From assembly GCA_000092065.1 (NCBI GenBank), contig CP000599.1: a stretch of 64,000 nt of DNA; one strand, given 5' to 3'. The stretch's first letter is position 1. Each line of letters starts with the position of its first letter. Positions 9,811 to 61,834 of this stretch are shown here, in pieces. The notes under the pieces are model-generated. The model saw only the letters and a list, made by a program, of their open reading frames with translations. It ran no database searches and was not told the DNA's origin. Made by a program: the position numbers and the translations under genes. The DNA is from Ostreococcus lucimarinus (lineage: Eukaryota).

Positions 9811-10743
9811 TCACGCGGAGGGCGCCAACGCGAGGACGCCGCACGCCAAGCGCTGCGCTCGCGTAAACCGAAGCGATCGATCGTCCGTCAGTCGAAAGCC
9901 GCGTGCGCGAAAAACGAAACCCTAAACGCGCGTCGAAATCGCGTCGCGTCGAGTCGCGATCGTGGAAATCGCGTCGAAATCGCGTCGTCGACGCACCGCT
10001 CCGGCGTTGCCCGTCGTCTTCGACGTCTTGCCCTGGGTGCCGATCTCAGAGCTATCGCCCTTGCCGAGATCGTCCTCGAGCTCGTGAATCACGAACGCGC
10101 GTCCGATGATCGAGTTCGCCCCGCTCAGCGGAATCTGCGAGTCCTCGATGACGAAGTCGCACCCGCCCGCGGTGGCCTCGACGTTGCCGAGGTCGCCCGC
10201 GTGTCGCGTCGCGTCCGTCGGCGCGCCGTGATCCATCTTGTTCGGGTTAAAGTGCGGTCCCGTGGACATGCACCCGTTCGTCGTATCGCCGAACTCGTGA
10301 ATGTGCAGGCCGTGCTTGCCCGGCGCGAGTCCGGTGATGGAGCCGACGACCTTCGTCGGCGCGTCGCCGCTCTGGCTCAGCTTGAGCACGCCCGACACCC
10401 CCGCGGTGCCCGTGAGCACGCACACCGCCTGCTTTTGCTCCGCCGTCACCGCGACCGCGCGAGGGCGATGCGCGGACGTCTTCGTCGACCTGCGATCGCG
10501 CGCGCCGGCGTTCGCGCGCGCGTCAGTCGTCGCGTTCGTCGCGGGTTTAGGTTCGTCGCGTCGTCGCGCGTCGTCGCGCAGCGCGTCGCTCGAGCGCACC
10601 GCGCGCACGCGCACTTGGCGCCGCAGAGGTGGGTCTTGGAGGCGAGCGTCGCCGATCGGGAGAGCGTCTGCATGGCGCGGCGTCGGGCGTCGTGTGTCGG
10701 CGATGACGTGGCGAGGGCGCGAACGCGCCCTCGTCGCCATCAT
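9811..10743 (-). CDS. SOD1: Cu/Zn superoxide dismutase with N-terminal organellar presequence; two exons (10743..9997 and 9852..9811), intron 9996..9853
   Basis: SOD1 core ([17 protein letters not shown]...[23 protein letters not shown]...GDLGNV...[11 protein letters not shown]...GNAGA). The ORF-track C-terminus after GNAG is intron read-through. The minus-strand donor gtgcgt follows GNAGA, and 144 nt later ...gcgcag precedes cgc ttg gcg tgc ggc gtc ctc ... tga, which encodes [13 protein letters not shown], the conserved SOD1 C-terminus with the disulfide Cys. ATG (MMATRAR) is the reverse complement of 10741-10743. The roughly 100-aa R/A/S/T-rich leader looks like a transit peptide. Confidence 0.8.
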
Positions 10744-11070
10744 TCGAGGGCCTTTATATACGTATATTTCGTAGAAATATACTTTATATTCGGAAACATG
10801 TCGTATGGGTATTGTGTCTGTGGTTATAATTGGTAGTATCCGAATATTCGGACACACGGCGTATGCGTATTGTGTATATACACATAATTGGTAAAAGTCC
10901 GAGCGCGCCGACCGTCGGCCGCGCGCCGCACGTCGCGACGCGCGATCGCGCGACGCCCGATCGCGTCCCGCGCGACGCCCGCGGACCTTCTCGACGCCTC
11001 GACCCGATCTTAACCGCCCGCGACCCGCGCGCGCGACACCCGAGGCGTCACGTCGACGACGACGCGCGTC
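10744..11070. promoter_or_regulatory. bidirectional promoter shared by the divergent SOD1 and CCS genes; AT-rich island with a duplicated ~58-bp element and a CCGAATATTCGG palindrome
   Basis: Lies between the SOD1 ATG (minus) and the CCS ATG (plus). The 10785-10896 stretch is AT-rich against a ~67% GC background and holds two imperfect copies of CG[TG]ATG.GTATTGTGT...TAATTGGTA. A perfect 12-bp palindrome sits at 10835-10846. Confidence 0.55.
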
Positions 11071-58533: not shown

Positions 58534-59159
58534 CCGTGTCGACGCGTCGCGTACGCGAGACCACGCGAGCGGTATCAATCACCGCGTTCGCGTCGATCCA
58601 TCCTCGCCCGCGTCCCGGCGATCCGTCGGACGGCCGCGGCCGTTGGCGTCGCGTCGACGCCGACGCGACGACGGAGCGCGACGCGCGATGGGCGCGAGGG
58701 CGCGCGCGCGAGACGCGAGACGAACGACGCGCGCGTTCGTCGCGATTCTCGCGCTCGCGCTGCGCGCGGCGACGACGCCCGCGGCGGTGCGCGCGACGCG
58801 AGCGACGAGAAGACGGACGAAAGACGACGACGACGACGAAGAAAGACGCGACGACGACGAGGGACTGACGGACGGACGCGACGACGCAGGGAACGACGCT
58901 GCGATGGCGAAAATTACACGCGTGGGGGGAGAACAAGCTCGGGGAACAGGGACGAGGCACGGTGCGGACGAAACGCCGAAACGCGACGCGACGGGACGAC
59001 TGACGAGACGCGCGGCGCGGCGGCGAACAGGCGACGAGCGCGGGGACGTGCGCGGAGGGAGAGCTGCCGGAATTAGGATGGGATCTGAACGGTGCGTCGA
59101 ACTGACGGTGCGCGCGTTGATCCAGCGGCGAACTGACGGTGCGCGCGTTGATCCACGAC

Positions 59160-61834
59160 AGAGACGGTGTCGCGCGTCGTCGCGGGCCTGGACCACGCCG
59201 TGGCGCTCACCGCGCGAGGCGAGGCGTACGCGTGGGGGAGCAATCGATGCGGACAGCTCGGCACGGGAGACTTTATAGATGCGCTCACGCCACAAAGGAT
59301 TTTGAGCTCGCACACGATCGTGGACGTCGCCGTGGGCGTCGAACACACGCTCGCGCTCGCGAGCGACGGCGCGCTCTTGGCATTCGGGTGCAACACGCGA
59401 GGCGCGCTCGGGATCGGGTCGGCGAATTTAGGCAGGCACGCGACGCCGCAAACGGTGACGTCGGCAGAGACGTTCACCGCGATAGCCGCGGCGGGCGCGC
59501 ACAGCGTAGGACTCACCGAACAAGGGGCGGTGTACACGTGGGGGGCAAACAACCAAGGCCAGCTCGGTGCGTCTCGCTTTTTCGCTCGCGCCGCGACGAC
59601 GCGCACGGCGCGGACGGACGACTGACGACGCGCGCGACGAACAGGGCTCGGTGGATGCGTTTTTCCGGGCGGCCCGGGACGGGATCCGTGCCTGAACGAC
59701 GTGCACACGGTGAGAGAAACGAACGCTTCGCGTCATGATTTATTAATTAATTTTTTTATTTCGCAGCCCACGAAAGTGCTCGTGATGAACGACGGGCTCG
59801 TTTTACCGCCCATTAAATTAATCGCCGCCGGCGGAGGCACGTTGGCGGGCGTGGCGCGCGTTCCCATCGGCGGACACACCGTGGCGGTGGCGAAATTAGA
59901 TAATTCAGTGTACGCGTGGGGCGATAATTTTGCCGGACAGTTGGGTACGTCATCAGAGCGCGCCTCGAGCGATTCTGACGTTTCCACAGGCGTGCCGCAG
60001 GTATACTTCAACGCGTCGTCATCCGCGTACTTTAACAACACTCCGACGTACACCCCGAACAAGGTACGGCGCATTTTTCTCGCGCAGGATGCACATTTAA
60101 TTAATTAATTAATTCGCAGTACGACGCGACTACCGGAGAGTATTACAACCGTCACGAAAAACCCATGGTCGTGCACGCACACGCCATCGTCGTCGCGAGC
60201 GGCACCAGCGTGCAAGCGAATAAGACGATTCTCCCGGCGATCAAGCAAATAGACGCGGGGATCGCGCACACGATTATGCTACTCGAGACGGGTGAAATTT
60301 TCACGTGGGGGGACAATTACTACGGTCAACTCGGGCTCGGATACGCGTCGCGTCAGAACACGCCGCACATGTTCTACGTCACGCGCTTTCGCGACGTTCC
60401 GCAGATGATTGACAAGCCCACGCGCGTGAAGAAGTTTGACTTTGTCGAAGAGACGGTGGTGAATTCTGTACCGATTAATTATACCATCACCGGGTACGTT
60501 TCGCGCGGAATCAACGCCCAAGAATCGGTGACGAATCGTACCTTTACTGACTCCGTTCGCGCGTAGGACGATAAAGGAAGAGGGCAACGCGATATTCACA
60601 CAGGTGCGAAATTAATTTTGATTAATTTAATTATTTCTCGTCGAGAAGCGCGCAAAGACTGATTGAGCGCGCTCTGCGCGGCGTATCACGCAGGTCAGCG
60701 CCGGTGGTCACGTCTCCATGGCGATCACGTCCAACAATAAGCTATTCATATGGTACGTGCGACCGCACGCCGCGACCACCAACGCAGCCGCAGACTGACG
60801 CTGAAATTTTCGTTTTCTCGCGCGCAAGGGGCGATAACTCTGAGGGTCAGCTCGGCGCTTGTGGATGCGGAGGATGCGTCGCGTACGACGCCGCGGACAC
60901 GGGCGTATGCACAGTCAATTCCACGGCAGCGTGTCCATGTAATTGCGGGGGACAAGGCACGTGCGTGTACACCCCTGCTTCGGCGGCGAACAACTTTATC
61001 GCGACAAACGAAGGTAAATGCGTCACCTACGGCACAGGCGCCGAGGCGGTGGCCAAGTGCAATTGCGCTAAAGGCGCTCTAAATCCTACTCTGAACCCTC
61101 CCCGGATGGTGGGGCAGATAAGTCTCATGGATGAACCGATGGTGTCTGATTTGAGCTACGAAAAGCAGTTCACGACGGTGACGTACGCGAGCGCCGGTGG
61201 CGGCGCCATGTTCGCCATATCCGAATCCAACTGCAAAGACGACGCTGACGGCGTCGTGTGCTCTGGACGAGGACAGTGCTTAGCTGATGGTTCGTGCAAC
61301 TGTAACGACGGCTCTGGTGGACCGACGTGTGAGAACGTGTGCCCGCTGGCGACGGATGAGGACGAGGCGCTATTCTCCCGATACGGTCTCGACGAAAACA
61401 TCGCCGGTGAAAAGTGCGCGGGCCACGGTACGTGCGATCCAATCACCGCGGAGTGCATTTGTGACCCCGGCTTTTTCGGCCCGCGCTGCACGTACATCTG
61501 CCGTCGCGATGCAAACCTGAAAGTCTGTTCCGGGAACGGCACGTGCGTCTACAACCCCGAAACCTCCTCGTCGCCCTACTGCGAATGTGACCGCTTCCAA
61601 AATCCGGGAGAGTGTGCGCAGCGTGGTCTACAGCTCTATCCTCAAGGTTGGTGCAGCTTTCACGGTGGTGAAGCCACGGGAGGCTTTGCGAGCTGTTTCG
61701 TCGCCGGCGTTTGCGGCGACTGCGAGAGTCCCGCCGCGGGACGCTTCGATTCGCCCCTCGTCCTCGTCCTCTTGTTCGCCGCCGTCGTCGTCTTCGTCTT
61801 CGGCGACGATTCGCATCGAGACGGCATCGCGTAA
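59160..61834 (+). CDS. mosaic RCC1-repeat plus EGF-like-repeat single-pass membrane protein; multi-exon (at least 5 introns), 5' end unresolved
   Basis: Exon-sized ORFs encode successive RCC1 blades (HAVALTARGEAYAWGSNRCGQLG; HTLALASDGALLAFGCNTRGALG; HSVGLTEQGAVYTWGANNQGQLG; HTVAVAKLDNSVYAWGDNFAGQLG; HTIMLLETGEIFTWGDNYYGQLG; ...LFIW|GDNSEGQLG). Cys-rich EGF/tenascin-like repeats follow (CSGRGQCLADGSCNCNDGSGGPTCEN; CAGHGTCDPITAECICDPGFFGPRC; CSGNGTCVYNP), then a TM helix PLVLVLLFAAVVVFVF. Introns at roughly 59567-59766, 59943-59987, 60067-60122, 60493-60692 and 60750-60824 all start gtacgt or gtgcgt and carry actgac near the 3' end. Confidence 0.6.

Follow-up and report, generated by a model that had tools for sequence, protein, structure and literature searches.

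The window, that is, the whole 64,000-nucleotide stretch of DNA that was analysed, has a mean GC content of about 64%, with dips to 55-58% in places within 52-64 kb. It contains at least 17 spliceosomal introns, which lie in 7 of its approximately 35 genes: two in SOD1, one each in AGPase, bL19, SKP1, the ACBP-like gene, and EFL1, and ten in RCC1-EGF. The original prediction had described the region as intron-poor, with RCC1-EGF as an outlier carrying five or more introns, and both descriptions are borne out. The nine introns that it counted are real but the count is too low, the EFL1 intron being one that it did not list, and of its length range of 45-200 nt the lower bound stands and the upper does not, the introns measuring 45-322 nt. 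Two of the 17 junctions, those of the ACBP-like gene and EFL1, have direct transcript support and three introns, both of SOD1 and that of SKP1, are spliced out in exact RefSeq products, while the remaining introns rest on domain completion, continuity of the open reading frame (ORF), and comparison with orthologues.

SOD1 is on the minus strand. Its intron 2 (9853..9996, 144 nt, phase 0) reads GTGCGT...tcGACTGACGg...GCGCAG with the putative branch A 35 nt from the 3' end, and splicing it out restores GNAGA/RLACGV (slashes mark junctions) so that the Sod_Cu match then spans profile positions 1-132 of 133. Intron 1 (10490..10614, 125 nt, phase 2) reads GTGCGC...cGACTGACGc...TCGCAG and lies inside the presequence. 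Without both introns the SOD1 product is exactly XP_001422430.1. The other genes described here, except EFL1, are on the plus strand. The intron of bL19 (30120..30275, 156 nt, phase 0; GTACGT...cGACTGACCt...GCGCAG) gives a junction that reads GAGKPV/VRRAKLFYLRR, and the match to Ribosomal_L19, profile positions 3-110 of 111, spans it. Removal of the SKP1 intron (30822..30967, 146 nt, phase 2; GTGCGT...gGACTGACGa...GACAG) yields exactly XP_001422389.1 and extends the Skp1_POZ match from profile positions 23-62 (56 bits) to 2-62 (89.5 bits). The intron of the ACBP-like gene (54573..54654, 82 nt, phase 0) reads GTGAGC...cGACTGACGg...CGTAG with the putative branch A 18 nt from the 3' end, and the spliced product of 196 amino acids is already on record. 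On the minus strand, the 3' intron of EFL1 (55083..55144, 62 nt) reads GTGCGT...gGACTAACc...GACAG, its branch box thus being the variant ACTAAC, and the spliced coding sequence ends at 55023. Both of these introns are missing from the RNA-derived Logan contigs L005 and L006, which are 100% identical to the window minus exactly 54573-54654 and 55083-55144.

For AGPase we propose a 5' intron (15120..15441, 322 nt, phase 2; GTGCGC...aGACTGACGg...GATAG) that would link a presequence exon of 22 codons (15055-15119) with the main ORF, and the phase fits. In the orthologous lineage represented by L043-L045 this position is also occupied by a phase-2 intron, GTACGC..GACTGACGGA..CGCAG, which differs in length by a number that is not a multiple of 3, and the downstream in-frame ATG is absent there. 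Against this intron, RefSeq XP_001422382.1, which matches exactly, is a single-exon model that starts at 15425.

When the ten introns of RCC1-EGF, R1 to R10, are removed, the gene becomes a single ORF of 809 amino acids with seven RCC1 blades that is colinear with its homologues; no exact public protein was found for this model. R1 (58787..58889, 103 nt; GTGCGC...gGACTGACGg...CGCAG) is required for the ORF. In the orthologue L016, R1 has kept its signals in a diverged interior of different length (84 nt). R2 (58962..59030, 69 nt; GTGCGG...cGACTGACGa...AACAG) belongs to the ten-intron ORF model, and in L016, where it measures 95 nt, the aligned ACTGAC is gone and a new copy lies 29 nt downstream in an insertion. 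R3 (59092..59161, 70 nt) begins with GTGCGT, continues with two tandem 31-nt units, each with AACTGACGGTGCGCG, and ends in GACAG; in L016 there is one unit only and it carries TCTGAC. If the proximal CCAG of R3 is used as acceptor, an in-frame TGA can be read from the sequence. The junctions of R1-R3 show small indels relative to distant homologues. From R4 onward the junctions are seamless when compared with intron-less homologues. R4 (59567..59644, 78 nt; GTGCGT...cGACTGACGa...AACAG; QLG/LGGC) is conserved in L016 and L019. R5 (59710..59766, 57 nt, 33% GC; GTGAGA...TTATTAATTAATTTTTTTATTTCGCAG; DVHT/PTKV) and R7 (60064..60119, 56 nt, 39% GC; GTACGG...TTTAATTAATTAATTAATTCGCAG; TPNK/YDAT) are without a CTRAY motif. 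R6 (59945..59989, 45 nt; GTACGT...atTCTGACgt...CACAG; GQLG/VPQ), with the putative branch A 11 nt from the 3' end, is conserved in L016, and R8 (60494..60566, 73 nt; GTACGT...tTACTGACTc...GCGTAG; TITG/TIKE) in L016, L019, and L031. R9 (60604..60693, 90 nt; FTQ/VSAG) has GTGCGA, an AT-rich 5' half (aattaattttgattaatttaatta), agACTGATtg, and CGCAG, and its ACTGAT is ACTGAC in all four orthologues, L016, L019, L028, and L031. R10 (60753..60828, 76 nt; GTACGT...aGACTGACGc...GCAAG; FIW/GDNS) uses an AAG acceptor, and this CAAG together with the branch site is conserved in L016. The positions of R2-R10 are fixed by exons E2-E11, each of which maps to a block of its own in L016, L019, L023, L028, and L031, and that of R1 was placed in L016, L019, L023, and L031.

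All 17 introns have GT-AG boundaries. At the donor, 12 introns have G and 5 have A at +3, 15 have C and 2 have A at +4, all have G at +5, and 9 have T at +6. At the acceptor, 10 of the 17 have C at -5, 16 have a purine at -4 (9 G, 7 A), and 13 have C at -3. ACTGAC occurs in 12 introns, a share that is inflated because part of the set was first located via this motif, and exact ACTGAC is absent from the other 5; ACTRAC occurs in 13, including all 7 introns outside RCC1-EGF, and the extended box GACTGACG in 9. The donor forms GTGCGT, GTACGT, and GTGAGC are as originally described and each of the six branch contexts that had been quoted is found at the gene named for it: ttcgACTGACgg in SOD1 intron 2, ggACTGACgag in SKP1, gacgACTGACc in bL19, cgACTGACggg in the ACBP-like gene, ACTGACtcc in R8, and gcagACTGACgc in R10. 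The element had been placed about 20-45 nt from the 3' end; in the introns with ACTGAC the putative branch A is in fact 16-35 nt from it. The uniformity of the signals, which had also been claimed, holds for most introns but not for R6 (TCTGAC), R9 (ACTGAT), or EFL1 (ACTAAC), and because R5 and R7 are without any CTRAY motif the grammar is not universal even in the window.

Could these signals be an artefact of chance and selection, ACTGAC being a common hexamer in 64% GC sequence that was found by looking near GT/AG pairs? Over the whole window ACTGAC is not enriched (19 sites against 18.4 expected) and GTGCGT is somewhat rarer than expected (58 sites against 71), and a loose scan for GT...CTRAY...AG returns about 250 candidates, of which 58 pass a filter for ORF continuity and most of these are spurious. 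However, the placement of the sites is far from random. Of the strand space, 1,754 nt (1.37%) are sense-strand intron, and these hold 13 of the 19 ACTGAC sites (binomial P = 1.5e-20) and 9 of the 10 GACTGACG sites (P = 1.7e-16); no site of either motif is antisense to an intron. These introns were defined without the motif, from RefSeq identity, transcripts, domains, and ORF continuity. The six extra-intronic ACTGAC sites are in coding sequence, antisense to genes, or overlapping a stop codon, and no ORF break flanks any of them. In addition, ACTGAC persists in orthologous introns although their interiors have diverged. A chance origin, to which we give practically no credence, is already refuted by the placement statistics and the transcript evidence.

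The original prediction had suggested a comparison with the introner elements of Micromonas-type genomes. The genome is that of Ostreococcus lucimarinus and not of the Micromonas type, as the exact RefSeq protein matches show, and the comparison was negative. The proposal would be that an introner-like mobile family, as in Micromonas, gave rise to the introns as its copies and that the ten of RCC1-EGF arose by recent propagation of one element. The introner elements of Micromonas do carry the same motifs, GYRaGu, GacUGAC, and CAG (Simmons et al. 2015, PMC4540971), several introns of the window are GC-rich, CGACG-type low-complexity sequence and look alike by eye, and the unit that is tandemly duplicated in R3 includes both the branch box and a donor-like GGTGCG. 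However, pairwise local alignments among 16 introns of the window scored barely above dinucleotide-shuffled controls (mean z 0.74) and gave no extended similarity, so that what the introns share is confined to the splice signals and low complexity. Introner elements are multi-copy and occupy novel, lineage-specific positions (Verhelst et al. 2013, PMC3879977), whereas the introns of the window are single-copy sequences at conserved positions: all ten in RCC1-EGF are common to orthologues with 40-60% protein identity, and the AGPase position is also shared with L043-L045. Furthermore, the first introner families are seemingly absent from other published Mamiellophyceae genomes (PMC3879977), and none is named for Ostreococcus in the introner literature examined. 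Descent from a mobile family is thus very improbable, and RCC1-EGF is a genuine, ancient intron-rich exception that does not owe its introns to any recent invasion.

We hold it almost certain that the introns of the window are ordinary U2-type GT-AG introns, as expected for Ostreococcus lucimarinus CCE9901, and that they belong to its canonical class, the one that occurs elsewhere than in the low-GC part of chromosome 2. Splicing takes them out of mRNA or of annotated products, and the box lies on their sense strand, its distance from the 3' end being constant. Orthologous introns, even where their interiors have diverged, have retained the box or have lost it and gained it anew, as in R1 and R2 of L016, where GTGCG, ACTGAC, and CAG persist despite changed interiors and lengths. 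In this intron-poor genome the signals are unusually strict, with GT(G/A)CG(T) as donor, (G)ACTGAC(G) as box, and C(G/A)CAG as acceptor. The penultimate A of the box is probably the lariat branch nucleotide, a role suggested by its position, its conservation, and analogy. By general principles of the spliceosome, the GUAGUA segment of U2 snRNA would pair with this box, leaving the A bulged and forming a G-U wobble at the G, and U1 and U6 would recognise the donor.

This grammar is already known, having been published in 2008 for the same genome, and the finding is therefore correct but ordinary. For O. lucimarinus, Irimia and Roy (2008, PLoS Genet 4:e1000148, PMC2483917) reported for the canonical introns outside chromosome 2 ACTGAC in 87.2% and GACTGACG in 66.5%, the donor GTGCGTG (4.8 bits), an acceptor preference for CGCAG (C at -5, R at -4), and a branch site that lies about 20-35 bp from the AG. 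These are the same signals in the same organism and there is no difference in kind; the lower share of ACTGAC in the window (71%) results from the four of ten RCC1-EGF introns that deviate. Two further claims of the original prediction, a strongly constrained, yeast-like branch point and an atypical GTGCGT-type donor (C at +4 in 15 of 17), hold in the window and, together with the intron-poor setting and the intron-rich outlier gene, agree with that study. The introns also resemble those of Micromonas, a different genus with an intron-poor, GC-rich genome, whose canonical introns have AG/GTGCGT and NCTGAC (PMC3879977) and whose introner elements have GacUGAC and CAG (PMC4540971), but the branch motif there is reported to be 43-52 bp before the acceptor and here is 16-35 nt. 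GYGCGY donors with an unchanged U1 snRNA have been reported for the Mamiellales (bioRxiv 10.1101/2022.06.08.495308). With hemiascomycete yeasts the likeness is in low intron density combined with near-invariant donor and branch sequences, a correlation between intron poverty and strong signals that is described in PMC2483917. The sequences themselves differ, ACTGAC against ACTAAC (the TACTAAC box) and GTGCGT against GTATGT, and Ostreococcus, unlike these yeasts, has also kept on its chromosome 2 a further population of introns with weak signals.

The introns that depart most from this grammar are R5 and R7, together with the 5' half of R9. The window has four copies of the motif TTAATTAA where 0.08 would be expected, and every one of them is in R5 or R7; across 302 kb of related loci the motif was found only in RCC1-EGF orthologues (in R5, R7, and R9, and once at the end of exon 8). 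The TTAATTAA/(TTAA)n core sits just upstream of the acceptor. In R5 the TTAATTAA core is retained in four of five lineages, including L016, L019, and L028, and in R7 the (TTAA)n core is the sole block conserved across six lineages. A literature search found no papers linking the TTAATTAA motif with Ostreococcus. These observations raise the question whether RCC1-EGF has two classes of introns, the canonical one with ACTGAC and a short, AT-rich one (R5, R7, and R9 in its 5' half) that uses a TTAATTAA-type AU-rich element, the latter being likened to the BOC1 introns of chromosome 2. Such a reading would complement and not replace the assignment to the canonical class given above, and we regard it as possible but doubtful. 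The definition of a BOC1 intron is a length below 75 nt, less than 43% GC, and no discernible branch motif (PMC3879977), and R5 and R7 (56-57 nt, 33-39% GC, no CTRAY) fit this definition, although the other 15 introns do not.

The gene is probably not in a BOC1 setting, which by definition is the low-GC region of a big outlier chromosome. The NCBI record that contains XP_001422430.1, XP_001422389.1, and XP_001422382.1 is 154,676 bp long, and chromosome 2, which has 489 predicted genes, must therefore be far larger; in addition, the window has about 64% GC, the introns of the flanking genes are canonical, and R5 and R7 are interspersed with ACTGAC-type introns in one gene. The case for a second class comes from a single gene family and two or three of its introns, simple repeats such as (TTAA)n are prone to slippage, and the TTAATTAA core is missing from R5 of L031. 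Moreover, about 13% of confirmed introns outside chromosome 2 are known to be without ACTGAC (PMC2483917), and UUAAU matches the generic branch consensus yUnAy, so that a separate mechanism is not required.

It is nevertheless conceivable, though we think the odds are against it, that RCC1-EGF is a conserved exception with two intron types outside chromosome 2, in which R5, R7, and part of R9 use the TTAATTAA/(TTAA)n core near the acceptor in place of ACTGAC. Its ten intron positions persist in Ostreococcus-like lineages with as little as about 40% protein identity. If the two-type reading is true, then the TTAATTAA core could be an undescribed AU-rich branch element or 3' recognition element. 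It could equally serve as a safeguard that ends translation of unspliced RNA, since every reading frame of either strand meets a stop codon in it.

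At least 17 introns were found in seven genes of the window: two in SOD1 (10490-10614 and 9853-9996, minus strand), one each in bL19 (30120-30275), SKP1 (30822-30967), the ACBP-like gene, EFL1 and, as a proposed intron, AGPase, and ten, R1 to R10, in the RCC1-EGF gene (58787-60828, plus strand). Across this set of 17 the lengths range from 45 to 322 nt. The reality of these introns is supported independently of the branch motif by RefSeq products, by Logan contigs, by the completion of domains and by the ORF of the RCC1-EGF gene. Exact look-ups showed that spliced SOD1 (197 aa), which uses both junctions, is identical to XP_001422430.1 and that spliced SKP1 (151 aa) is identical to XP_001422389.1. 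Two RNA-derived Logan contigs, L005 (SRR28369158) and L006 (DRR699221), are 100% identical to 52224-56401 except that two segments are absent from them, namely, the 82 nt of the ACBP-like intron (54573-54654) and 62 nt in EFL1 (55083-55144). In Pfam comparisons, positions 1-132 of the 133 in the Sod_Cu profile were matched once SOD1 was spliced, the Skp1_POZ match went from a partial one (23-62, 56 bits) to 2-62 with 89.5 bits upon splicing, and the Ribosomal_L19 profile (3-110 of 111) runs across the junction in the spliced bL19 product. The spliced models of bL19, EFL1 and RCC1-EGF had no identical public counterpart in exact look-ups, and their junctions accordingly rest on homology and on comparison with orthologues.

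A loose scan for the GT, branch box and AG grammar and a filter for ORF continuity both proved too unspecific in this GC-rich DNA, which has many long spurious ORFs, and neither was counted as evidence. A codon-usage frame track, which is blind to short 5' exons and to in-frame introns, showed no additional same-strand frame switches within genes. Three further candidates were rejected: one at the 5' end of EFL1 (58243-58321), because the coding signal starts at the ATG at 58141 and an upstream exon is thus unnecessary; one at the 5' end of ARPC3 (37072-37181), because an ATG at 37223 lies before the domain; and one on the minus strand (33415-33562), because it is antisense to a plus-strand coding segment. 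The genes other than the seven with introns are plausible single ORFs initiated by ATG.

The splice signals of the 17 introns are strict. All donors begin with GT and have G at +5. Position +3 is occupied by G (12 introns) or A (5), C stands at +4 in 15 introns, and T stands at +6 in 9. The acceptors, all of which end in AG, favour C at -3 (13 introns), a purine at -4 (16) and C at -5 (10). The branch box ACTGAC is present in 12 of the 17, nine times as GACTGACG, and its branch A is then 16-35 nt away from the final base of the intron; the variants are ACTAAC in EFL1, TCTGAC in R6 and ACTGAT in R9, and R5 and R7 have none. Because some of these introns first came to light through the motif, its frequency in the set is somewhat overstated; those introns that were validated independently have the same signal pattern as the full set. 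ACTGAC departs from chance in its placement and not in its overall count: there are 19 sites in the window against 18.4 expected, and GACTGACG shows a modest excess (10 against 4.5). The sense strand of the introns (1,754 nt, 1.37% of the two-strand space) holds 13 of the 19 ACTGAC sites and nine of the ten GACTGACG sites (binomial P = 1.5e-20 and 1.7e-16, respectively), and the antisense strand holds none. The six ACTGAC sites outside introns fall within coding sequence, are on the antisense strand of genes or overlap a stop codon.

The original prediction was that introns here share one donor and branch-point grammar, and every branch-site context and donor hexamer that it quoted was found at the gene named. 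This interpretation is supported, and the phenomenon was already known for O. lucimarinus; indeed, the grammar has been published for exactly this genome. In their section 'The Peculiar Case of Ostreococcus', Irimia and Roy (2008, PMC2483917) reported ACTGAC in 87.2% and GACTGACG in 66.5% of the EST-confirmed introns outside chromosome 2; the donor consensus was GTGCGTG (4.8 bits), CGCAG was preferred at the acceptor (C at -5, R at -4), and about 20-35 bp separated the branch site from the AG. Chromosome-2 introns, according to the same paper, are short and their signals weak. The O. lucimarinus CCE9901 record that carries XP_001422430.1, XP_001422389.1 and the AGPase product XP_001422382.1 has 154,676 bp, which is far too small for chromosome 2 with its 489 predicted genes. 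The GC content of 64%, a CFAP77 hit and marine metagenome matches had pointed to Micromonas as the source, a reading that was rejected on the strength of these exact protein matches.

When the RCC1-EGF locus is spliced at ten GT-AG introns, one ORF of 2,430 nt encoding 809 aa results; its product has a signal peptide, seven RCC1 blades and EGF-like repeats, and it ends in a C-terminal membrane anchor. The spliced ORF is colinear with homologues each of which is, for most of its length, a single ORF, seamlessly at R4-R10 and with small indels at R1-R3. Because the reported maximum is 13 introns, with introns in 16% of EST clusters and a mean of 1.74 per intron-containing transcript (Lanier et al. 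2008), this ten-intron gene is an outlier, yet it is inside the reported range. A homology search with the protein gave nothing above 38% identity. A scan of metagenome contigs with it gave near-identical loci (L011-L015, 97%) and five diverged orthologue loci, L016 (60%), L019 (57%) and L023, L028 and L031 (40-56%). In all five of the latter exons 2 to 11 map as separate blocks, with gaps of 50-120 nt and changes of frame between blocks, and thus the positions of R2-R10 are conserved; a grammar scan also found the R1 position in four of the five. In L016 the two introns R1 and R2 have diverged in their interiors, and the lengths differ by non-multiples of three (103 nt in the window against 84 nt, and 69 against 95 nt), although GTGCG, ACTGAC and CAG are retained; in R2 of L016 ACTGAC is gone at the aligned site and reappears as a new copy 29 nt further downstream. 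R9 has ACTGAT in the window as against ACTGAC in four orthologues. The sense to antisense counts of ACTGAC in the five diverged gene spans are 6:0, 6:0, 2:0, 2:1 and 3:0. R3 contains a 31-nt tandem duplication (59099-59160, plus strand), each unit having AACTGACGGTGCGCGCGTTGATCCA, that is, a branch box followed by donor-like GGTGCG; its counterpart in L016 has one unit only, with TCTGAC.

A relation to introners, the mobile intron families of Micromonas, had also been raised. Canonical Micromonas introns have AG|GTGCGT and NCTGAC (Verhelst et al. 2013, PMC3879977), and the motifs common to introner families are GYRaGu, GacUGAC and CAG (Simmons et al. 2015, PMC4540971). The comparison was negative: pairwise local alignments of the window introns scored barely above dinucleotide-shuffled controls, and the RCC1-EGF orthologues show intron positions that are ancient and not lineage-specific.

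Four of the ten RCC1-EGF introns deviate from ACTGAC. R5 (57 nt, 33% GC) and R7 (56 nt, 39% GC), both without a CTRAY motif, resemble the short, low-GC chromosome-2/BOC1 introns. All four TTAATTAA sites in the window, against 0.08 expected, are in R5 and R7. The TTAATTAA/(TTAA)n core of these AT-rich introns lies at 59743-59750 in R5, 60097-60112 in R7 and 60612-60640 in R9, with orthologous sites in L016, L017, L019, L021, L023, L028 and L031; in R5 and R7 it is 7-18 nt upstream of the acceptor. It is the sole conserved block of R7 over six lineages, and in R5 it is retained in four of five. In 302 kb of fetched related loci TTAATTAA occurs in RCC1-EGF orthologues only (in R5, R7 and R9 and at a single exonic site, at the end of exon 8). 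Since UUAAU fits the generic yUnAy branch consensus, the simplest reading is that the core would be an AU-rich branch or 3' element. No paper linking the motif with Ostreococcus came up in a full-text search, and the conserved core may be regarded as a minor lead from one gene family. The gene sits within a lower-GC stretch (52001-64000) with several 2-kb bins at 55-58% GC, against 62-72% over most of the window; L023, L028 and L031 also have only 54-55% GC, and their branch motifs appear looser.

The practical by-products of the survey are small annotation corrections in four genes, one of them being the ten-intron, 809-aa model of RCC1-EGF, a membrane protein. EFL1 has a 62-nt intron at its 3' end (55083-55144, minus strand) that the original prediction did not list, and the ACBP-like gene has a full two-exon model here, while RefSeq XP_001422395.1 is a 110-aa partial; apparently RefSeq has neither the EFL1 intron nor the complete ACBP-like gene. 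The two genes are convergent, with 8 nt between the ACBP-like stop codon (55012-55014, plus strand) and the spliced EFL1 stop codon (55023-55025, minus strand), and since the RNA-derived contigs extend over both, their transcripts overlap. AGPase probably has a 5' exon and an intron (15120-15441, plus strand) upstream of the main ORF. The single-exon RefSeq model, XP_001422382.1, which by exact look-up is identical to the ORF from 15425, starts at an ATG inside the 3' end of the proposed intron. Loci L043-L045 of the orthologous lineage hold a counterpart of the intron, likewise in phase 2, with GTACGC, GACTGACGGA and CGCAG and a different length, and they have no in-frame ATG downstream of the acceptor. 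This comparison of orthologous sequences supports a 22-codon exon plus intron (15055-15441) over the single-exon model.

The window has a GC content of about 64% and about 35 densely packed ORF-defined genes with eukaryotic housekeeping domains. Cu/Zn SOD1 (minus strand) and its copper chaperone CCS (plus strand, HMA and Sod_Cu domains) form a divergent gene pair (9811-12030) and have in common the AT-rich DNA of about 400 nt between them (10780-10900); similar short AT-rich islands are also at other gene starts (29340-29470, 37100-37180 and 58340-58390). An ORF at 21569-22318 (minus strand) has a Pfam match to CFAP77, the cilia- and flagella-associated protein 77 (E = 2.3e-15), although Ostreococcus is not known to have a flagellum. 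A tRNA gene at 36878-37005 (plus strand) has a 54-nt intron, an acceptor stem that pairs perfectly (GCCCCAT/ATGGGGC) and a T-run terminator; it was found only by ARAGORN with the intron option, default ARAGORN and Rfam giving no match. ARAGORN calls it tRNA-Ser(TGA), which is doubtful, since after splicing the tRNA would have 74 nt and no long variable arm.

The introns are spliceosomal introns of the U2 type. In such introns, the GUAGUA stretch of U2 snRNA base-pairs with the branch box and leaves the branch adenosine bulged, and the donor is recognised by U1 and then by U6. The RNA elements for pairing with these snRNAs would be GACUGACG and GUGCGUG, and ACUGAC would form five pairs with U2, its G giving a G-U wobble. 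Rfam and default ARAGORN runs on the window found no snRNA and nothing relevant. C at donor +4 is a mismatch to standard U1. According to a 2022 preprint, GYGCGY donors are favoured in Mamiellales, O. lucimarinus among them, yet the U1 pairing region is standard (bioRxiv 10.1101/2022.06.08.495308). Both points of significance were made between 2008 and 2015 for this genome and its relatives, and the finding therefore brings no new biology: the strict ACTGAC/GTGCGT grammar is a textbook case of intron loss linked with a tightening of splice signals, and it makes the introns of Mamiellophyceae genomes predictable from the sequence alone.
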